The translations under genes and the position numbers were made by a program. Shown here piece after piece: positions 45,343-64,000 of a stretch of DNA of 64,000 nucleotides. The stretch covers positions 82,247 through 146,246 of the forward strand of contig JBBQAM010000001.1 of assembly GCA_038316335.1 (NCBI GenBank). The letters run 5' to 3'. Under the pieces are notes generated by a model. It ran no database searches. It was not told the origin of the DNA and worked only from the letters and a program-made list of their open reading frames with translations. The stretch comes from Flavobacteriales bacterium (GTDB taxonomy: Bacteria; Bacteroidota; Bacteroidia; Flavobacteriales; Flavobacteriaceae). Numbering within the stretch: the stretch's first letter is position 1; the number at the start of each line of letters is the position of its first letter.

Positions 45343-45386
45343 CGAATTTATGAATCAGGAAGGTCGTTTGAAATGATTTATGTCAT
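45343..45386 (-). promoter_or_regulatory. Candidate Crp/Fnr-type operator plus -7 box; promoter of 44858-45301 (and lipoprotein 44202-44846)
   Basis: The plus strand reads ATGATTTATGTCAT at 45373-45386. After a 22-nt gap toward the gene, the minus strand reads TAAATTCG (45350-45343), one mismatch to TAnnTTTG. Confidence 0.55.
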
Positions 45387-53182: not shown

Positions 53183-54238
53183 TTACTGAAAGATATGCTC
53201 GAGTTTGTCGCTGTCCAGTATTTTGATGTTCCTGTCCTTGATGTCGATAAGTCCTTCTTTTTTGAAGGCAGAGAGGGTGCGAATCAAAGTTTCAGTTGCC
53301 ATTCCGGCAACATTGGCCAAATCGCTTCGCAAAACGTGCAGGTTGCCTTCGGGATCTTTTTGAAGGCTTTGGGCAAATTTCAGCAGGGTACTAGCCGTTT
53401 TCTGGCGAACGGTGCCATAGGCCATCTGCAATAATTGCTCTTTTGCCTCTAAAAGATTTTCAGAAAATATTTTCATCAATTCCATGCTCAGTTGGTGGTT
53501 TTCTTGGAGAAGCAGACACAGTTTCTCGTTAGGAATTCCCACCAATTTAGTAAGTTCAATGGCCGAGGCAGATTCGCTATACGAAAGTCGTCGTGCGAAT
53601 GAGGAAAAACCAAAAAAGTCATCTGGTTTATAAATGCCGGTAATGAGTTCCTTGCCGGTTTCATCTAATTTGTGGGTTTTCACAAGGCCCTTAAGCACGA
53701 GATATACAGTAGTGGCATTCATGCCCTCCTGATAGATGTTCTCACCCGATTCATAGGTATATGACTTACCATTGTCATCAATGAAATTTTTCATTTCATC
53801 AATAGTATGCATGCTTTTTAGCGCATTATTTGTTTTCGTATTGAAATTGATATGGGGTACCTTATAAAGTTTGATTTTGGCCAAACGGCTCTTTATGGCC
53901 CCAATTAATTCGTGTTCGTCAAAAGGTTTGGTCAAATAATCATCTGCGCCTAGTTCCATACCTTTCCGAATGTCTTTATACTCGTTTTTCGCGGAAAGAA
54001 AAATAAAAGGAATATGTTGGGTATCTTGTGTTTGGGCAAGGGCTTCCAAGACGCCATAACCATCTAATTCGGGCATCAAAATATCACAAAGAATGATGTC
54101 GGGTCGATGCTGTTTGGCCGCTTCAATTCCTTTTTTGCCATCCGCGGAGGCAATAACCCTATAATTCGAAAGCTCTAATAACTCCTGGATATTCTCCCTT
54201 AAAATCGAGTCGTCCTCTATCAGCAATACGGTGCACAT
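53183..54238 (-). CDS. Hybrid response regulator: CheY-like receiver + cNMP-binding-like domain + Crp/Fnr-type HTH
   Basis: Receiver features: E8-D9-D10, D52 in IILCDILMPELDG, K104 in LTKPF. These are followed by a Crp-like beta-barrel (VYLVLKGLVKTHKLDETGKELITGIY) and the HTH SDLANVAGMATETLIRTLSAFKKEG. Confidence 0.88.
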   Translation of the reverse strand: MCTVLLIEDDSILRENIQELLELSNYRVIASADGKKGIEAAKQHRPDIILCDILMPELDGYGVLEALAQTQDTQHIPFIFLSAKNEYKDIRKGMELGADDYLTKPFDEHELIGAIKSRLAKIKLYKVPHINFNTKTNNALKSMHTIDEMKNFIDDNGKSYTYESGENIYQEGMNATTVYLVLKGLVKTHKLDETGKELITGIYKPDDFFGFSSFARRLSYSESASAIELTKLVGIPNEKLCLLLQENHQLSMELMKIFSENLLEAKEQLLQMAYGTVRQKTASTLLKFAQSLQKDPEGNLHVLRSDLANVAGMATETLIRTLSAFKKEGLIDIKDRNIKILDSDKLEHIFQ

Positions 54239-55959: not shown

Positions 55960-56003
55960 ATGACTTAGGTCATTTCGAAGCCTATAATATTGCTTTACCT
56001 TTA
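55960..56003 (+). promoter_or_regulatory. Candidate Crp/Fnr-type operator plus -7 box; promoter of 56029-56241 (and probably 56307-56720)
   Basis: Perfect palindrome ATGACTTAGGTCAT at 55960-55973, a 22-nt gap, then TACCTTTA at 55996-56003. The ATG is at 56029. Confidence 0.6.
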
Positions 56004-56306: not shown

Positions 56307-56720
56307 ATGAAATCATCACAAAAAGTTGGGAACGCATTTTATCAAAATCTTGGTAAACTTTTCTATGCAGTTGCATCGGTTGATAAAAAAGTAGCTCCCA
56401 AAGAGATAGAAAAGCTCAAAGCCGATGTACGCAAATACTGGCTTCCAATTGATGCTGATGAGGACGAATTTGGCACTGATGCGGCACATCAAATTGAAAT
56501 CGTCTTCGATTGGCTACTGCATGAAGAGAAGGATAGTGCGCGATGTTTTGACGATTTTATGGAGTTTTATTTTGACCATCCCCATAAATTCAGTACTGAA
56601 ATTAAACAACTTACCTGGGAGACTGCCAATGGTATTGCCGCCTCTTTTGCGGGCAAGAATAAATCAGAAGTGATCGTACTCGCTAAATTAAAGAAAGCTT
56701 TAAAAAATACTGAGGTCTAA
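56307..56720 (+). CDS. TerB-like helical protein (tentative)
   Basis: 137 aa. FYQNLGKLFYAVASVDKKVAPKEIEKLKADV resembles the TerB/co-chaperone DjlA N-terminal fold pattern. No search was performed. Confidence 0.45.
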   Translation: MKSSQKVGNAFYQNLGKLFYAVASVDKKVAPKEIEKLKADVRKYWLPIDADEDEFGTDAAHQIEIVFDWLLHEEKDSARCFDDFMEFYFDHPHKFSTEIKQLTWETANGIAASFAGKNKSEVIVLAKLKKALKNTEV

Positions 56721-56764: not shown

Positions 56765-56808
56765 GTAACCATTGTTACGGGGCAAAGATTTCCTTCCCGC
56801 TACCTTTG
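56765..56808 (+). promoter_or_regulatory. GTAAC-N4-GTTAC operator plus -7 box; promoter of the TauE-family gene
   Basis: GTAACCATTGTTAC at 56765-56778, a 22-nt gap, then a perfect TACCTTTG at 56801-56808. The ATG is at 56829. Confidence 0.6.
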
Positions 56809-56828
56809 GGTCTTAATTTCATGACCGT

Positions 56829-57647
56829 ATGGATTTCCTTCAGATATTAGGGTATATAGGTGCATTAATGATCGGAATCACTCTTGGCCTCATCGGAGGT
56901 GGAGGTTCTATTTTGACGGTTCCTATCTTTGTCTACCTTCTTTCGATCAATCCTGTTGTGGCGACTGGTTATTCGCTCTTTGTAGTTGGCATGACCTCGA
57001 TGGTAGGGACGGTACAAAATATTCGAAAAGGGCTGGTCGATTTCAAAATGGCCTTTGTTTTTGCGATTCCTGCATTCATTGCGGTCTATATCAACCGAAG
57101 GTATGTCGTACCCCTGATTCCGGAAAACCTATTTAGTTTTAATGGGTTACTAGTTACAAAAGATATCGGAATCATGGTATTTTTCGCACTCCTTATGCTA
57201 GCGGCTTCCATTTCAATGATACGCGGAAAGGGCCAAGTGCTTGATAAAGAACGTGCAAATCGGCGCTCAAATATGATGACGATAATGGCCGAAGGATTTC
57301 TAATTGGCGCAATAACCGGACTCGTAGGTGCGGGAGGCGGATTTTTGATTATTCCTGTTTTGGTAGTCATGGCAAAATTGCCCATGAAAAATGCAGTTGC
57401 CACGTCACTGCTGATCATTGCTATCAATTCACTGATCGGCTTTATAGGCGATATTGAAACCATGACCATTGATTGGCCATTTTTATTGGGTTTCATTGCT
57501 ATTTCGATTTCTGGAATTTTTATGGGGATGTGGATTGGTAAGTCAATCGATGGCGATAAGCTTAAAAAGGGTTTCGGATGGTTTGTACTGGTAATGGGTA
57601 TTTATATCATTTATAAGGAGCTTTTTATTTTGTTTGCAAATGGCTGA
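56829..57647 (+). CDS. Sulfite exporter TauE/SafE family membrane protein
   Basis: 272 aa with about 8 TM segments and duplicated G-rich motifs GLIGGGGSILTVP and GLVGAGGGFLIIP. Confidence 0.85.
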   Translation: MDFLQILGYIGALMIGITLGLIGGGGSILTVPIFVYLLSINPVVATGYSLFVVGMTSMVGTVQNIRKGLVDFKMAFVFAIPAFIAVYINRRYVVPLIPENLFSFNGLLVTKDIGIMVFFALLMLAASISMIRGKGQVLDKERANRRSNMMTIMAEGFLIGAITGLVGAGGGFLIIPVLVVMAKLPMKNAVATSLLIIAINSLIGFIGDIETMTIDWPFLLGFIAISISGIFMGMWIGKSIDGDKLKKGFGWFVLVMGIYIIYKELFILFANG

Positions 57648-57686
57648 TATAAATCATACGCTATCACACCATAAAATGTAAGCTTT

Positions 57687-57730
57687 GTAACCTAAGTTAC
57701 CTTCAAAAACTTGAATACATCGTAATTTTA
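57687..57730 (+). promoter_or_regulatory. GTAAC-N4-GTTAC operator plus -7 box; promoter of the persulfide dioxygenase-rhodanese gene
   Basis: GTAACCTAAGTTAC at 57687-57700, a 22-nt gap, then TAATTTTA at 57723-57730. The ATG is at 57759. Confidence 0.6.
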
Positions 57731-57758
57731 AATCAGAAATATTTAATCATAAGGTGTT

Positions 57759-59174
57759 ATGCATGTAGAACAGATTTATACCGGATGCTTGGCACACGCT
57801 GCCTATTATTTGGAAAGTAAAGGTGAGGCGGCCATTTTTGACCCGCTTCGAGAAGTAGAACCTTACATTGCTAGGGCGGCAAAGGACAAGGCCAAAATAA
57901 AATATGTGTTCGAGACCCATTTTCACGCCGATTTTGTGAGTGGTCATTTGGATCTTAAGAAAAAAACAGGTGCAGAGATTGTTTTTGGCCCAACTGCAAG
58001 ACCTGGGTATGACGCCATAGTTGCGAAGGATAACCAGATTTTCAAAGTAGGGGATTATCAGGTAAAAGTGATCCATACCCCTGGGCATACCATGGAAAGT
58101 ACGACGTATCTTTTAATCGATGAAAACCAAAAAGAACATGGTATTATTACGGGAGACACCTTGTTTATTGGGGATGTAGGTCGACCAGACCTTGCACAGC
58201 ACGTGGTTTCGGAACTTACCGAGGAGAAATTGGCAGGTTACTTGTTCGATTCCTTAAGAAATAGGATCATGCCATTGCCAGATGACCTTATAGTGTATCC
58301 CAACCATGGTGCCGGTTCTGCGTGTGGAAAAATGATGAGCAAGGAAACGACCGATACGCTGGGCCATCAGAAAAAAGTAAACTATGCCCTTCGGCCCGAC
58401 ATGACCAAAGATGAATTCATTAAAGAGTTGCTTACCGGATTGACCAGGCCCCCTGGTTATTTTCCGCAAAACGTTTTAATGAATATAAAGGGGTATGACA
58501 GCTTGGATACCGTCATGGATCGGGCCAAAACCCCGTTATCTGTTGACGCCTTTGAGGCCGCTGCCAACGAAACGGGAGCCTTGATGCTGGATACCCGTGA
58601 GGCCGTTGATTTCGCCAAAGGCTTTATCCCGAATAGCATCAACATTGCTCTTGATGGTAATTTTGCACAATGGGTAGGCGAAATGATTCCCGATGTGAAG
58701 CAGGAAATACTATTAATTACCTATCCAGATCAACAGGAAGAAACGATTACCCGACTTTCGAGAGTTGGGTATGATCATGCCGTGGGTTACTTGAAGGGAG
58801 GTTTTGAGGCCTGGCAAAAGTCAGGAAAGGAATTTGAGACCATTAATAGGATTACGGCCAAGGAATTCGAAGCAGTTTATTCGGCCGAAAAGCCCTTGAT
58901 CATTGATGTCCGAAAGAAAAGCGAATTCGATTCCGAACATGTGATAGGCGCCATAAACGTGCCATTGAACGAAATCAATCGGCACTTATCACAATTTCCA
59001 AAAGATAGGTCCTTTATACTCCACTGTGCAGGGGGATATCGCAGTATGATTGCGGCATCTATACTAAAGCAGCGTGGCTGGGTGAACTTGGTTGATGTGA
59101 TAGGGGGTTTTGATGAAATTAAAAAGACGGGCATAGCAAAGACAGCCTATGTATGCCCGACCACACTTCTATAA
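57759..59174 (+). CDS. MBL-fold persulfide dioxygenase fused to two rhodanese domains
   Basis: ETHFHADFVSGH and HTPGHT metal ligands of the ETHE1/glyoxalase-II type. These are followed by rhodanese modules, the last with the active-site loop HCAGGYRS. Confidence 0.85.
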   Translation: MHVEQIYTGCLAHAAYYLESKGEAAIFDPLREVEPYIARAAKDKAKIKYVFETHFHADFVSGHLDLKKKTGAEIVFGPTARPGYDAIVAKDNQIFKVGDYQVKVIHTPGHTMESTTYLLIDENQKEHGIITGDTLFIGDVGRPDLAQHVVSELTEEKLAGYLFDSLRNRIMPLPDDLIVYPNHGAGSACGKMMSKETTDTLGHQKKVNYALRPDMTKDEFIKELLTGLTRPPGYFPQNVLMNIKGYDSLDTVMDRAKTPLSVDAFEAAANETGALMLDTREAVDFAKGFIPNSINIALDGNFAQWVGEMIPDVKQEILLITYPDQQEETITRLSRVGYDHAVGYLKGGFEAWQKSGKEFETINRITAKEFEAVYSAEKPLIIDVRKKSEFDSEHVIGAINVPLNEINRHLSQFPKDRSFILHCAGGYRSMIAASILKQRGWVNLVDVIGGFDEIKKTGIAKTAYVCPTTLL

Positions 59175-59332
59175 AAACGATAAATGCCATCTTAGAATTT
59201 AAGAATTCGAAAGTATAGACAATGAATTGAAATAAGGAATATCCTTAATGGGATCGTATTTAAGATACCTGCTAAAATGCATGAGGGTACTTTCTTGTAA
59301 ACGATGCTAATAAGATAATAAATAAATGAATC

Positions 59333-59998
59333 ATGGAAACAACAGACGTAAAACCAACAATAATGCCCCGAATCGGGGATATCGCGCCCGATTTTGAGGC
59401 CGTGACTACAAAAGGTAAAATTAAATTATCAGAATATGCCAAAGACAAATGGTTGGTCATGTTCTCGCATCCCGCTGACTTTACGCCCGTTTGTACGACC
59501 GAAATGAGTGGCTTTGCCTTGCGGAAAAAAGAGTTCGATGCCTTGAAAACAGAACTTCTGGGACTTAGTATCGATAGTATTCATGCCCACCTTGGGTGGG
59601 TCAATAATGTGCGTGAGAAAACCGGAGTGTATTTTGACTTTCCCATAATAGCAGATATCGACATGAAGGTGTCTAAACTCTATGGGATGTTGCAGCCGAA
59701 CGAAAGTGAGACTGCCGCCGTACGTGCCGTTTTCTTTATTGATCCTTTGAAAAAAATTCGCCTGATCATGTATTACCCTTTGAATGTGGGTAGGAATATG
59801 AATGAAATTTTAAGGGTCTTGGAAGCCTTGCAGACTTCCGATAAATATAAGGTCGCCATGCCCTTGGATTGGAAAAAAGGAGATAAAGTGATCGTGCCAC
59901 CGCCAAAAACCTTGGATGAGATGAATACCAGGATGCAAGACAAGTCGATCGAATTGGTAGATTTTTATCTGGCCAAGAAGGAACTGAATTATAATTGA
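59333..59998 (+). CDS. Peroxiredoxin, 1-Cys (Prx6) type
   Basis: FSHPADFTPVCTTE peroxidatic-Cys motif; 221 aa. Confidence 0.92.
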   Translation: METTDVKPTIMPRIGDIAPDFEAVTTKGKIKLSEYAKDKWLVMFSHPADFTPVCTTEMSGFALRKKEFDALKTELLGLSIDSIHAHLGWVNNVREKTGVYFDFPIIADIDMKVSKLYGMLQPNESETAAVRAVFFIDPLKKIRLIMYYPLNVGRNMNEILRVLEALQTSDKYKVAMPLDWKKGDKVIVPPPKTLDEMNTRMQDKSIELVDFYLAKKELNYN

Positions 59999-60019
59999 TT
60001 TTTAGTTGGTTGTTGTAGG

Positions 60020-60052
60020 AAACGGTCATAGACTCTTTTGGCCGTTTTCTTT
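60020..60052 (+). terminator. Probable terminator after the peroxiredoxin gene
   Basis: AAACGGTCA (60020-60028) pairs with TGGCCGTTT (60039-60047) with one G-U pair, followed by the T-rich TCTTT. Confidence 0.5.
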
Positions 60053-60084
60053 AGTTGCGCCACAAATCCTTAAAACAAAAAAAT

Positions 60085-60429
60085 ATGTCATTCTTAAGTA
60101 ATTTATTTGGAACGGTAAACAACACGTCTGATAAAATAGAAATATTGGACACGGTAGCCTATGGTAAGGCTATTTCAGAAAAGAAAGTGCAATTGGTAGA
60201 TGTGCGAACTGTTGCTGAATATCGCAGTGGCCATATAAAAAATGCCATCAACATCGATTTTTTTAATTCGGCCGATTTTGTAAGGAATTTTGAAAAATTG
60301 GATAAAGAAAAGCCTGTCTACGTCTATTGTCGTTCAGGCGCAAGGAGTCAAAAGGCCGCCCGAAAATTAGTGGGATTGGGTTTTTCACAGATTTACGACT
60401 TGGCAGGAGGCTTTATACGTTGGAAGTAA
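60085..60429 (+). CDS. Single-domain rhodanese (sulfurtransferase)
   Basis: ORF 60055-60429; ATG at 60085 (MSFLSNLF) is preferred. Active-site loop YCRSGARS. Confidence 0.85.
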   Translation: MSFLSNLFGTVNNTSDKIEILDTVAYGKAISEKKVQLVDVRTVAEYRSGHIKNAINIDFFNSADFVRNFEKLDKEKPVYVYCRSGARSQKAARKLVGLGFSQIYDLAGGFIRWK

Positions 60430-60618
60430 GGACAAAACCAAAGCAGGCATCAATTTGAATTGTTCACAGTATCCCTGTACCCATTGAATTTGTGGTATTC
60501 AAGTGGTGTATCTAATGGCAAGTGTACTAAAGAAAAAGGCTTTTGGGAGTACTGTTAAGAGATTTTATGCCTTTCGAAAGTCAGCGTAACATTTTAAATA
60601 ATGAATAAATAGGTACCA

Positions 60619-60891
60619 ATGAAGACATCTATCAGAGTGCAGAATTTGAAATGTGGCGGTTGTGCCACGTCCATTCGTTCCAAGCTCACTGAATTGGAGT
60701 ATGTGTCGGAGGTAACCGTTAGCGTCGAATCGGCAATGGTTTCCTTTGTTCATAATGATATCGATGATGCCCTTAGGGTGAAGCGCCAATTGAAAGATTT
60801 GGGATATCCGTCTATCGATACCAAGAAAACCAGGTCCGCCAAGATGATTTCTTTCTTCAGTTGCACCAAAGGGAAAATAGCAAGCTTATGA
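60619..60891 (+). CDS. Heavy-metal-associated (HMA) domain protein with CGGC motif
   Basis: MKTSIRVQNLKCGGCATSIRSKL... is a ferredoxin-like HMA fold. Its stop codon overlaps the next gene's start (ATGA at 60888-60891). Confidence 0.75.
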   Translation: MKTSIRVQNLKCGGCATSIRSKLTELEYVSEVTVSVESAMVSFVHNDIDDALRVKRQLKDLGYPSIDTKKTRSAKMISFFSCTKGKIASL

Positions 60892-61901
60892 AACATATAC
60901 TCCTCGTTACATTGATTTTTGTAGTATCAGGCTGTAAAGACGCCACTAAATCAGTAGCCATACCTGAACCTACTGAAAGTAGAACGAACGAAGTCACAGA
61001 GATCGACCGGCTCTATCCCGGAAAGAAAATTTTGGAGAACGAATGCTATATCTGCCATAACCCGAAGGCATCGCAATCGAATATGATCGGGCCGCCTATG
61101 ACGGCCATTAAATTGCATTATATTGACGCTACCACAACAAAAGAACAATTTGCAGAGGCACTTTTACAATGGATAAATGACCCGGAACAAGCAGGGAAAA
61201 TTCCAGGGGCCCATAAAAGGTTTGGAAGCATGCCGTATATGCCGAAGCCTGATACCATGATCCGTCAGGTGGCAGATTACCTATATGATAATGATGTCGA
61301 ACGACCCGTTTGGTTCGACAAGGAGTTTGAGGCCCGCTATATAAAGGGCAATGGCCAAGGGATGGGTATGGGTGTGTTCAAAGAATGGACCGCTCCCGAT
61401 TCTGAAACAGAATATGCTCAAAGAGGGCTTGAATATGTCAAGAAGACCCAAGCGGTTTTGGGAAAAAATTTAGTCAAGGCGATCCAGGAAAACGGCACGG
61501 CAGGTGCCTTACGATACTGTAATATCCAGGCCATAAAATTAACGGATAGTATTTCTGTGATGCACAATGCCATTATTAAACGGGTTAGCGATAAGCCTAG
61601 AAATGCCAATAATTGGGCAAATGCAGATGAATTGAGCTATATAGAGGCCTTTAAGGAGCTGGTTTCTGCCAAAGTTGAGGTACAACCGATCATAAAAAAT
61701 GATAATGGGGACGTTTATTTCTATTATCCCATCACAACCAATACCATGTGTCTGCAGTGTCATGGCAAACCCAATGATCAAATCGCTCCGGCGGTTATGA
61801 CGGCATTAAGTACCATCTATCCAAATGACAAGGCGACCGGGTATGATGTAAATGAAGTACGCGGTATGTGGAGCATTGTTTTCGATGACAGCAATGAATA
61901 G
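60888..61901 (+). CDS. Lipoprotein with N-terminal c-type cytochrome motif and C-terminal DUF3365-like heme domain
   Basis: ATG at 60888 gives the lipoprotein signal MKHILLVTLIFVVSGC. There are two CxxCH motifs: CYICH, with a downstream Met candidate, and CLQCH in the C-terminal DUF3365-like part. Confidence 0.65.
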   Translation: MKHILLVTLIFVVSGCKDATKSVAIPEPTESRTNEVTEIDRLYPGKKILENECYICHNPKASQSNMIGPPMTAIKLHYIDATTTKEQFAEALLQWINDPEQAGKIPGAHKRFGSMPYMPKPDTMIRQVADYLYDNDVERPVWFDKEFEARYIKGNGQGMGMGVFKEWTAPDSETEYAQRGLEYVKKTQAVLGKNLVKAIQENGTAGALRYCNIQAIKLTDSISVMHNAIIKRVSDKPRNANNWANADELSYIEAFKELVSAKVEVQPIIKNDNGDVYFYYPITTNTMCLQCHGKPNDQIAPAVMTALSTIYPNDKATGYDVNEVRGMWSIVFDDSNE

Positions 61902-61922
61902 CGTAGCCAATAACAAAATCAT

Positions 61923-62612
61923 ATGAAAACCCTAGGGCTTATCGGAGGTACTTCCTGGCATTCCACCATTGTTTACTATAAACTTATCAATGAATTGGTC
62001 GGCACGAAAATAGGCGCCCAGGCAAATCCCGAATTGTTGTTATACAGCATTAATATTGAAATTATGCGCGAGCAGGATCCGCAAAAAATTAATGCCAAAT
62101 ATGAAAAAGTAGCCCATATCCTTGAGAAAGCGGGAGCCGAGGCCATAGTTATTTGTGCCAATACACCGCATATGGCCTATGAGTTTGTTCAGCCGAAAAT
62201 AAAGATTCCCATACTTCATATCGCCGATGCCGTTGGGCGAGAAGCCTTAAAATTGAATCAAAAAAGGATCGGCCTTCTGGGCAATAGGCCGACGATGACG
62301 AAAGGCTTTATACAATCCCGATTAAAAAATAAATTTGGCATTGAGGTCCTAATTCCAAAGGAGAAGTACATTACAGAATGCCATCATTATGTCTCAGATG
62401 AATTGACCCAGGGCCAATTTACCGAAAATGCGAGGCAATTTTTCATACGACAAATGGCGGAATTGAAAAGTAGCGGGGCCGAAGGCATTATTCTAGGGTG
62501 TACCGAATTGCCGATGCTGCTCTCCAAAAAAGACTTTGACCTTCCTTTGTTCGCAACTACACGGCTTCATGCCCAAATGGCTTCTGATTTTATTCTATCG
62601 GACACCAAATAG
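61923..62612 (+). CDS. Aspartate/glutamate racemase family protein
   Basis: 229 aa. LIGGTSW, and two catalytic Cys regions VICANTPH and ILGCTELP. Confidence 0.85.
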   Translation: MKTLGLIGGTSWHSTIVYYKLINELVGTKIGAQANPELLLYSINIEIMREQDPQKINAKYEKVAHILEKAGAEAIVICANTPHMAYEFVQPKIKIPILHIADAVGREALKLNQKRIGLLGNRPTMTKGFIQSRLKNKFGIEVLIPKEKYITECHHYVSDELTQGQFTENARQFFIRQMAELKSSGAEGIILGCTELPMLLSKKDFDLPLFATTRLHAQMASDFILSDTK

Positions 62613-62666
62613 CTTTTAAGGCTCTAAGCACTTAGGGCATTTTTAATTAGGACAGCGCGATGTAAT

Positions 62667-62710
62667 GTAACAAAAGTTACAGCATAGGTAATAACGGATC
62701 CATACTTTTA
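62667..62710 (+). promoter_or_regulatory. GTAAC-N4-GTTAC operator plus -7 box; promoter of sqr
   Basis: GTAACAAAAGTTAC at 62667-62680, extended to the 16-bp TGTAAC-N4-GTTACA at 62666-62681. A 22-nt gap follows, then TACTTTTA at 62703-62710. The ATG is at 62735. Confidence 0.6.
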
Positions 62711-62734: not shown

Positions 62735-64000
62735 ATGAAAACACATCATAAAATATTGATTATCGGTGGCGGCACCGCCGGCATTATGACGGCCGCTCAA
62801 CTTTTAAAGAAAGATAAAAGTCTTGACATTGGGCTAATAGAACCATCGGATACCCACTACTACCAACCCGCTTGGACATTGGTAGGTGCAGGAACTTACG
62901 ATTATGATAAAACGGCTCGCCCAATGGCATCGGTTATGCCCAAGGGAGTAACTTGGATTCAGGACTTCGCCACTGGATTTGTACCCGAGAACAATTCGGT
63001 CACGACTAAATCAAATGGTACTATTTCGTATGATTATTTAGTAGTTGCTCCCGGATTGGCCTATGATTTTAGTCTGGTTCCTGGGCTTGGTGAGGCAATC
63101 GACAAAGGGGTGGTATGCAGTAATTATACCGATCCAAAACACACTTGGGAGGTGATTAAGAATTTCAAAGGAGGTACGGCCTTGTTTACTCAGCCAACCA
63201 CCCCGATCAAGTGCGGTGGCGCCCCACAGAAAATCATGTATTTGGCAGCATCATATTTCAGAAAGAGCGATGTTCGCAAAAAGACGGATATTGTCTTTGC
63301 AACATCTGGCTCAGTAATCTTTGGCGTTAAGGAAATTGCAAAAACCTTGATGGAGGTGGTTGATAGAAAAGACATCAACTTACGGTTTCATCACAAATTG
63401 GTTGCAATAGATTCCAAGAAGCAGATCGCTTGGTACGAATTGGGAAAAGATATCTCTGCCGGAGGCTGCGTGGTTATGGCGGGTGATGATGACAATCGGC
63501 TGTTGGATGCGTCATTTCAATATAACTACAAAGCCGTAAAGGTAACGATTGAGGGTGCCAGATATGGCATACACTATGATATGCTGCATACCGCACCCCC
63601 TTCAGTGGCGCCAAAATTCGTAAAGGAATCATCCTTGGTAAATGCTGCAGGATGGGTCGATGTTGACCAACAGACCATGCAGCATAAAAAATTCCCGAAT
63701 ATCTTTAGCTTGGGGGATGTTGCCGCCTTGCCGACCGCCAAAACAGGTGCCGCCATTCGGAAACAGGTGCCTATTGTCGTCGATAATATCGTTTTGTTGA
63801 TCGAACAGCATAAACTTGGTAGTAAATCCTATAATGGCTATTCTTCCTGTCCGCTTGTAACCGAATACGGAAAGATGGTTTTGGCGGAGTTTGATTATCA
63901 GAACAACTTTATTCCTGACCCTAAATTAAAGCAAATGCTTGTTTTTGATAGTTCAAAGGAACATTGGCGTCTGTGGATCCTTAAAAAATACGGCTTACCC
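62735..64000 (+). CDS. sqr: Sulfide:quinone oxidoreductase (type II / SQRDL-like), 3' end beyond the window
   Basis: Open frame from ATG 62735 to the window end (422 codons); it is absent from the ORF track because no stop codon is reached. Motifs: MKTHHKILIIGGGTAG Rossmann fold, redox Cys in PIKCGGAPQK and SSCPLVTEYG, and GDVAALPT. Confidence 0.85.
   Translation, partial: MKTHHKILIIGGGTAGIMTAAQLLKKDKSLDIGLIEPSDTHYYQPAWTLVGAGTYDYDKTARPMASVMPKGVTWIQDFATGFVPENNSVTTKSNGTISYDYLVVAPGLAYDFSLVPGLGEAIDKGVVCSNYTDPKHTWEVIKNFKGGTALFTQPTTPIKCGGAPQKIMYLAASYFRKSDVRKKTDIVFATSGSVIFGVKEIAKTLMEVVDRKDINLRFHHKLVAIDSKKQIAWYELGKDISAGGCVVMAGDDDNRLLDASFQYNYKAVKVTIEGARYGIHYDMLHTAPPSVAPKFVKESSLVNAAGWVDVDQQTMQHKKFPNIFSLGDVAALPTAKTGAAIRKQVPIVVDNIVLLIEQHKLGSKSYNGYSSCPLVTEYGKMVLAEFDYQNNFIPDPKLKQMLVFDSSKEHWRLWILKKYGLP

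Follow-up and report, generated by a model that had tools for sequence, protein, structure and literature searches.

The window analysed here is a 64,000-nt (64-kb) stretch of contig JBBQAM010000001.1 from a Flavobacteriales bacterium, and towards its right-hand end it carries a sulfide-oxidation gene cluster, which runs from a TauE-type exporter gene (tauE) over a persulfide dioxygenase (PDO)-rhodanese fusion gene (pdo) to a sulfide:quinone oxidoreductase (SQR) gene (sqr; Table 1). In front of these three genes stand three copies of a palindrome, GTAACNNNNGTTAC, which is the subject of this report. A pattern search finds exactly these three perfect copies in the window, with 0.01 expected by chance, and none of 100 shuffles of the window reaches that number. 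Each copy is built like a Crp/Fnr operator, namely as an inverted repeat of two 5-bp half-sites with 4 bp between them, giving a 14-bp core. When two mismatches are allowed the window yields 21 matches against 16.7 expected, no excess over chance, and therefore only the perfect sites count here. A -7 promoter box of the Bacteroidetes type, read from the sequence, follows each operator at the same distance of 22 nt, and the start codons of the three genes (the gene starts in Table 1) lie 20 to 28 nt past the boxes. A sigma-70 promoter scan, being inapplicable to Bacteroidetes promoters, was disregarded.

Conservation and promoter geometry of the sites

For comparison we fetched 80 related loci with the PDO-rhodanese protein, all of them from Flavobacteriaceae or related Bacteroidia except one labelled Alteromonas (L080); the closest relative, L002, has a PDO 97% identical to that of the window. 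The palindrome is present in 80 of 80 loci. Over 1.47 Mb of sequence, loci L001-L081 contain 301 perfect sites against an expectation of one or two, and the start of an open reading frame (ORF) lies within 250 nt of all but 18 of the 303 perfect sites in L002-L081 and the window. The spacer of the palindrome is freely variable, while a T is favoured on its upstream flank (81%), extending the half-site there to TGTAAC. We also counted from the side of the genes, which were not selected for sites, scoring a hit when the 150 nt upstream contained a site with no more than one mismatch. Such sites precede SQR genes in 43 of 45 cases, PDO in 91/109, TauE in 30/41, TsdA/SoxA-like cytochromes in 20/21, DsrE in 16/17, FCSD-like flavoproteins in 10/10, SulP in 6/6, DUF983 in 16/16 and CydA in 5/7. 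Genes internal to the operons, which serve as controls, lack upstream sites (rhodanese 0/71, Tll0287-like 0/64, racemase 0/25). According to the Pfam annotation of the site-associated gene clusters, on which all regulon functions given here are based, further operon members in the relatives include a sulfite-oxidase-like molybdoenzyme, the genes for which are also preceded by sites, a protein that may be its haem-binding partner (weak Pfam match), a double rhodanese, DsrC/TusE-like and DsrE-like proteins, a TPMT-type methyltransferase, an OprD-like porin and an RND-type efflux system. The gene set is a coherent sulfide/sulfane-sulfur detoxification regulon. The earlier note on this DNA had described the three perfect palindromes and their constant 22-nt spacing from the sequence alone, had read them as an operator family dedicated to sulfide oxidation and had suggested looking at orthologous promoters; the sites and the spacing were re-found as described, and the conservation before sqr, pdo and tauE orthologues across the 80 loci bears the reading out, so that we regard the cis-regulatory part as solid.

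Palindromes may also be hairpins in RNA or DNA, either terminators of the upstream genes or repeated extragenic elements, and sites 2 and 3 do lie shortly past the stop codons of the genes upstream of them. However, a stem of 5 bp, two of them G-C, closed by a 4-nt loop would be weak, and a T-run is lacking behind it. What is conserved in the arms is the sequence itself, with no compensatory variants among about 300 copies, and their position is fixed to the downstream -7 box and not to the upstream stop codon. We find the hairpin explanation hardly credible.

The geometry bears on the mode of action. The motif TAnnTTTn starts exactly 22 nt past the site in 200 of 283 site-gene pairs (next commonest offset, 9), and by gene the box at +22 is found for SQR in 36/36, PDO in 62/67, TauE in 28/30 and DUF983 in 15/15. 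From the centre of the site to the first base of the downstream -7 box the distance is thus 29.5 bp, at all three window promoters as well as in the 200 pairs of the relatives, which would place the centre at about -41 with the box taken to span roughly -12 to -5. Directly after the site only a partial -33 element (xTG) is seen, and the bound regulator would overlie this weak element. Such a rigid distance is what would be expected of an activator that contacts RNA polymerase, since for a repressor overlap with the promoter suffices. Could the sites nevertheless be repressor operators placed over the -33 region and released by the signal, as with CstR and SqrR/BigR? The overlap exists at each promoter, and CstR and SqrR/BigR do repress, though FisR activates (PMC13467558). 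The 22 nt are kept exactly in most pairs, however, the -33 element is partial, as expected at activator-dependent promoters, and at NtcA-activated promoters GTA-N8-TAC is centred about 41.5 nt upstream of the transcription start (PMC3898017). We therefore regard repression as quite improbable, and the regulator would most likely act as a class-II-type activator recruiting RNA polymerase.

A doubled arrangement occurs in Eudoraea-like genomes, where two perfect sites whose starts are exactly 23 bp apart stand before an outer-membrane efflux (OEP/RND) operon, with the proximal one at the usual distance from the gene (L010 19464/19487, L012 19477/19500, L025 17444/17467, L031 19539/19562, L039 20270/20293 and L064 16760/16783).

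A Crp/Fnr protein beside the sites

An iterated profile search of all ORFs of the loci reveals a Crp/Fnr protein of 209-211 aa adjoining the cluster in 46 of the 80, with the Pfam domains cNMP_binding (PF00027) and HTH_Crp_2 (PF13545). Its gene takes one of three places: immediately upstream of the tauE operator, in between sqr and cydAB, or second behind the gene for a 129-aa DUF983 membrane protein, in which last case a perfect site stands in the DUF983 promoter (16 of 16). This last site implies that the regulator would be autoregulated via the DUF983-regulator operon. Pairs of this kind are found, for example, at L011 8594-9676, L024 7961-9051 and L089 7601-8633; the DUF983 protein has two CxxC motifs, with the promoter site at the standard distance, and may be a partner or co-sensor of the regulator. 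The association extends to an ocean-metagenome homologue with 59% identity, whose neighbours are once more tauE, a fatty-acid-hydroxylase gene and pdo, and where a perfect site is present. Among the 120 best matches identity is 73-100%, in genera such as Maribacter, Zobellia, Polaribacter, Cellulophaga and Tamlana. The orthologues are annotated generically only, and no NCBIfam model reaches its cutoff.

The AlphaFold model of the regulator (mean pLDDT 89) has the Crp fold, and a sequence search of the PDB returns 3dv8 as the best match (E 8e-14), followed by NtcA (PDB 2xgx, E 3e-11), the cyanobacterial nitrogen regulator, which is the nearest characterised relative by sequence. The recognition helix TSRVVVSRLL aligns to STRVTVTRLL of NtcA with the same R-V-x-V-x-R order; R182 is invariant among orthologues, V183 is the residue that they have at the next position, and R187 is at least 90% conserved. 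In terms of CRP positions 180, 181 and 185, the equivalents of R180 and R185 are kept while E181 is replaced by Val, giving the R-V-x-x-x-R pattern of NtcA. The NtcA site GTA-N8-TAC is contained in GTAAC-N4-GTTAC, and therefore the NtcA-like helix fits the core of the palindrome. The protein is not an NtcA orthologue, however. It scores 44 bits with TIGR03697 against a cutoff of 245, it comes from a different phylum, its regulon concerns sulfur and not nitrogen, and it has a cysteine triad in the effector domain; the NtcA effector is 2-oxoglutarate (PMC3898017; PDB 2xhk).

The same helix logic connects the palindrome to an older prediction. Residues 180 and 181 of the Crp/Fnr helix set the contacted half-site bases, and the consensus GTAACnnnnGTTAC was predicted in 2005 for the HcpR2 branch, including Bacteroides (Rodionov et al., PMC1274295). 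The identical consensus and the present sites are both explained by the loss of Glu-181 from the recognition helix. HcpR2 regulons, though, consist of hcp (hybrid cluster protein) and have a connection to nitrosative stress (PMC1274295), and position 181 is Pro in HcpR2 where it is Val here. No hcp is found among the Pfam-annotated site-associated gene clusters, which contain sulfur-oxidation, transport and respiratory genes instead. An identification of the regulator with HcpR2 is thus rejected, on account of Val at 181 and a regulon without hcp. One family member with Pro at the specificity position, P0201, has no hcp in its gene context, which is uninformative.

In the window itself the sole Crp/Fnr-type gene encodes a fusion of a response-regulator receiver with a Crp domain (Table 1). 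This protein could in principle bind the GTAAC sites as well as a neighbouring operator family, ATGAC-N4-GTCAT, with no further regulator needed, and the two families do share the 5-N4-5 structure and the 22-nt geometry. The neighbouring family has six window matches with at most one mismatch (1.64 expected), all at 45.3-56.0 kb, namely at 45373, 45918, 51815, 53141, 54480 and 55960, in a block with five tandem-Usp genes, a thioredoxin gene, a dnaJ/MerR_2 pair and the fusion gene; the site at 55960-55973, read base by base, is followed after 22 nt by the -7-type box TACCTTTA. The earlier note's statement that the neighbouring operator family has the same geometry thus holds, with N22 plus box seen at the one site read. 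The helix of the fusion, ATETLIRTL, which resembles that of E. coli FNR (Glu...Arg), suits ATGAC-N4-GTCAT rather than GTAAC, and because of this helix the fusion is likely to be the regulator of the ATGAC family. Of the 80 related loci, all have GTAAC sites but only 6 the fusion gene, and it is the 210-aa protein, not the fusion, that co-localises with the sites. A double role of the fusion is accordingly very improbable.

Proposed signal, cysteines and the missing regulator gene

We put the probability at about 0.68 that the three palindromes are operators of a Crp/Fnr class-II-type activator of about 210 aa, controlling a sulfide/sulfane-sulfur regulon and encoded elsewhere in the genome. 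A dimer of this regulator would bind GTAAC-N4-GTTAC through the GTA-N8-TAC core and would recruit RNA polymerase with the primary Bacteroidetes sigma factor. The signal would most likely be sulfide or a derived sulfane-sulfur species, because the genes controlled are those of sulfide/sulfane-sulfur detoxification; the sulfide responsiveness proposed here is thus read from regulon content. The sensor would most likely be a triad of cysteines. C77 is invariant, and C83 and C84 are 99% conserved, among 154 distinct orthologue sequences, in the motif GDTCAMTxxCC. In the AlphaFold model the motif falls in the part of the beta-roll where a strand passes into a helix (residues 77-86; mean pLDDT of the block 73-77), roughly where E. 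coli CRP holds the cAMP phosphate, a correspondence of sequence position that was judged by eye and not from a computed alignment.

Most CstR, SqrR/BigR and FisR sensors use a cysteine pair for sulfane sulfur, and because this holds for most known persulfide sensors (PMC13467558) our guess, by analogy, is that a thiol-based sulfane-sulfur switch would be the most economical reading. More specifically, the 210-aa protein may itself be the direct sensor, with persulfide or polysulfide modifying or bridging C77, C83 and C84 and thereby switching the dimer to a DNA-binding form; we offer this as a tentative proposal, with the odds somewhat against it.

Several points weigh against the proposed sulfide-responsive activator. 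One concerns the cysteines themselves. The regulator belongs to a wide Crp/Fnr subfamily (P0121-P0270; 214 clusters at 50% identity, E <= 1e-30) in which the cysteine of a G-[DE]-[TS]-C motif is near-universal, and of which we know no characterised member. The first cysteine is present in 133 of 135 representatives (50% identity) and the full C...CC triad in 53 of 135. The idea that the triad tracks the Val-type helix was rejected, as it occurs in 23 of 46 Val-type and 28 of 84 Glu-type representatives. The first cysteine is thus conserved far beyond the GTAAC-type subfamily and the triad goes with both Val and Glu, and therefore the cysteines are a feature of the wider family. PDB 3dv8 (EUBREC_1222 of Eubacterium rectale, from structural genomics) belongs to the wide subfamily and has the first cysteine and one of the pair (DMCLLSASCIM, compared with GDTCAMTLSCCVG here). 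It differs in having Glu at the specificity position (SHREVITR), because of which it probably binds another operator. A second point is that we infer from sequence that the regulator binds the sites and that it activates instead of repressing, and likewise the signal and what the cysteines do chemically.

A third concerns the neighbours of some sites, which suit a different signal. The same regulator with the same class-II geometry might respond to oxygen limitation or to the general thiol redox state, with the cysteines serving as metal or iron-sulfur ligands, as in FNR, or as a thiol-disulfide switch, as reported for FLP, the FNR-like protein of lactobacilli; under this reading micro-oxic, sulfidic habitats, and not sulfide itself, would turn the sulfur genes on. 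Cytochrome bd genes carry sites or share operons with genes that do, a HemN-like gene is found next to some sites, divergent to the DUF983-regulator operon, the orthologues are labelled 'anaerobic regulatory protein' in some sources, and three invariant cysteines would serve such a sensor too. E. coli FNR and FLP are of the same family as the present regulator and share with it a 5-N4-5 operator and, as proposed for the regulator, class-II activation from about -41.5 and cysteine-based sensing. On the other hand, FNR has three N-terminal cysteines and one internal one for its [4Fe-4S] cluster, whereas our regulator lacks the N-terminal ones; the half-site is TTGAT in FNR and GTAAC here, and the score with the NCBIfam Fnr model is 19.7 against a cutoff of 228. 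Only three cysteines are conserved, and just one of these is shared near-universally by the wider family. In content, the regulon is overwhelmingly sulfur-specific (SQR, PDO, TauE, sulfite oxidase-like, TsdA-like, DsrE/DsrC-like, FCSD-like, SulP, rhodaneses), and PDO, an oxygen-consuming dioxygenase, needs oxygen. Cytochrome bd, which in E. coli is a sulfide-resistant oxidase, would also suit a sulfide regulon. As to the HemN-like gene, we tried it as a regulon member and rejected it, since it lies divergently and, in 7 of 9 cases, does not show the 22-nt geometry, and so it is probably a bystander. A redox signal seems to us unlikely on balance, and we prefer sulfide or sulfane sulfur.

Finally, a cognate Crp/Fnr regulator is found in relatives only. 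In the window, Pfam scans of candidate ORFs and tblastn with the regulator detect no Crp/Fnr gene besides the fusion (domains REC, cNMP and HTH_Crp), and neither the window nor L002 holds a remnant by tblastn; in L002 the gene is also absent from 10 kb on either side of pdo. Close homologues (P0002, P0004, P0005, P0006, P0007 and P0025) and the distant P0047 were traced, and all belong to other organisms or samples. The order of genes is sqr-regulator-(cydAB)-second sqr-like gene in L085 and in L087/L088/L090, and sqr-regulator in L003 and L004, whereas in L002 it is sqr-cydAB-second sqr, with a 119-nt gap and no regulator (the spacer at L002 16288-16406; the same slot in L087/L088, 9878-10720, holds the regulator). 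All operators of L002 are perfect despite the empty slot. In the lineage of L002 and the window the regulator appears to have been moved or replaced, and the empty slot together with the missing remnant points to its being encoded elsewhere. That it exists here at all is assumed from the retention of perfect sites, five in L002 and three in the window. The earlier note had proposed a Crp/Fnr regulator with NtcA-like sites, had seen no cognate gene in the window and had allowed for one beyond nt 64000. The first two of these views agree with the 210-aa gene beside the cluster in relatives, its NtcA-like helix and our negative scans of the window, but a place directly past nt 64000 is improbable for the gene, to judge from the empty sqr-cydAB slot of L002 and the region around its pdo.

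The place of the regulator gene upstream of the tauE operator, as found in many relatives, is occupied in the window by a gene for a 137-aa protein of no Pfam or NCBIfam family (Table 1). It is kept in L002, L003, L004, L015, L045, L048 and L059, and its counterpart in L090 has a weak TerB match.

The window cluster and its relation to known sulfide regulators

The five genes between pdo and sqr, from the peroxiredoxin to the racemase gene, have no site of their own in the window. For this reason the peroxiredoxin gene is probably co-transcribed with pdo, while in other loci it has its own perfect site in 13 of 22 cases. The HMA (CxxC metal-binding) and Tll0287-like genes are inside the pdo operon in most loci, in clusters of 48 and at least 64 members, respectively; for the latter the likely ATG start in the window is 60888, as read from the sequence. 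The window sqr gene encodes an FAD oxidoreductase, with type III SQR as its best match in NCBIfam (E 4e-65, below cutoff), and the full-length gene in L002 encodes 435 aa and is followed by cydAB. The terminator-like hairpin between the pdo operon and the sqr promoter is a pattern match only, and the total of such matches is not above that in shuffles.

Table 1. Operators, promoter boxes, genes and other features of the window discussed in the text (window coordinates).
Feature	Position	Strand	Remarks
Receiver-Crp fusion gene	53183-54238	-	REC-cNMP-HTH_Crp
137-aa protein gene	56307-56720		directly upstream of tauE operator
Operator 1, GTAACCATTGTTAC	56765-56778	none	perfect palindrome, upstream of tauE
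-7 promoter box, TACCTTTG	56801-56808	+	22 nt past operator 1, read from sequence
TauE/SafE-family sulfite exporter gene (tauE), 272 aa	56829-57647	+	Pfam PF01925, E 3e-43
Operator 2, GTAACCTAAGTTAC	57687-57700	none	perfect palindrome, upstream of PDO-rhodanese gene
-7 promoter box, TAATTTTA	57723-57730	+	22 nt past operator 2, read from sequence
Persulfide dioxygenase-rhodanese fusion gene (pdo), 471 aa	57759-59174	+	Pfam Lactamase_B and two Rhodanese stretches
1-Cys peroxiredoxin gene	59333-59998	+	Pfam AhpC-TSA and 1-cysPrx_C; NCBIfam NF009668 above cutoff
Single-domain rhodanese gene	60085-60429	+	Pfam PF00581; internal in operon
HMA-domain protein gene, 90 aa	60619-60891	+	Pfam PF00403
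Tll0287-like protein gene	60861-61901	+	N-terminal CXXCH haem motif; Pfam PF11845 and weak cytochrome c matches
Asp/Glu/hydantoin racemase-family gene	61923-62612	+	Pfam PF01177; last before sqr
Terminator-like hairpin and T-run	62621-62638	+	consensus scan; between pdo operon and sqr promoter
Operator 3, GTAACAAAAGTTAC	62667-62680	none	perfect palindrome, upstream of sqr
-7 promoter box, TACTTTTA	62703-62710	+	22 nt past operator 3, read from sequence
Sulfide:quinone oxidoreductase gene (sqr)	62735-64000	+	Pfam Pyr_redox_2; cut by window end

The major sensor classes for sulfide-derived sulfur species are of the CsoR, ArsR and Fis types (2026 review, PMC13467558), represented by CstR, SqrR/BigR and the sigma-54 activator FisR. 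They control the same kinds of targets as the present sites, namely sqr, pdo, rhodaneses and TauE-type exporters, but they are of other folds and families, and CstR and SqrR/BigR repress while FisR needs sigma-54. No CsoR-like, ArsR-type or sigma-54-activator domain is found in the annotated ORFs of the window at 44.8-64 kb or in selected ORFs of 178-240 aa elsewhere in it. The earlier note had set the sites apart from known sulfide regulators on grounds of family, correctly so, as the three classes exclude a 210-aa Crp/Fnr protein. Its claim of novelty stands in part. A full-text literature search gave no description of a Crp/Fnr regulator of sqr or pdo, although subscription journals were thinly covered and an earlier description is possible; the one match, a Halomonas paper, deals with denitrification only. 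The regulator subfamily and its link to sulfide oxidation thus appear to be undescribed, whereas the operator consensus had already been predicted in 2005 and the operator type, the protein family and the promoter logic are of known kinds.

A Crp/Fnr regulator of sqr and pdo would add a family to the list of sulfide- and persulfide-responsive regulators, and it would be an activator, unlike the repressors of the CsoR and ArsR types. Sulfide is common in coastal sediments and on particles, where Flavobacteriaceae rank among the major degraders of organic matter, and we found no description of their sulfide-detoxification switch in the literature searched. As the ten palindromic bases are invariant and their distance to the -7 box is fixed at 22 nt, sulfide regulons become predictable in hundreds of genomes, and the cis-element would, if our proposal is true, provide a ready-made sulfide-inducible promoter for Bacteroidota genetics. 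Should the 210-aa protein prove to sense sulfane sulfur directly, it would add another structural class to the bacterial persulfide sensors, would work as an activator and would be the main switch for sulfide in marine Flavobacteriaceae, and cysteine-bearing relatives with other DNA specificities would be widespread.

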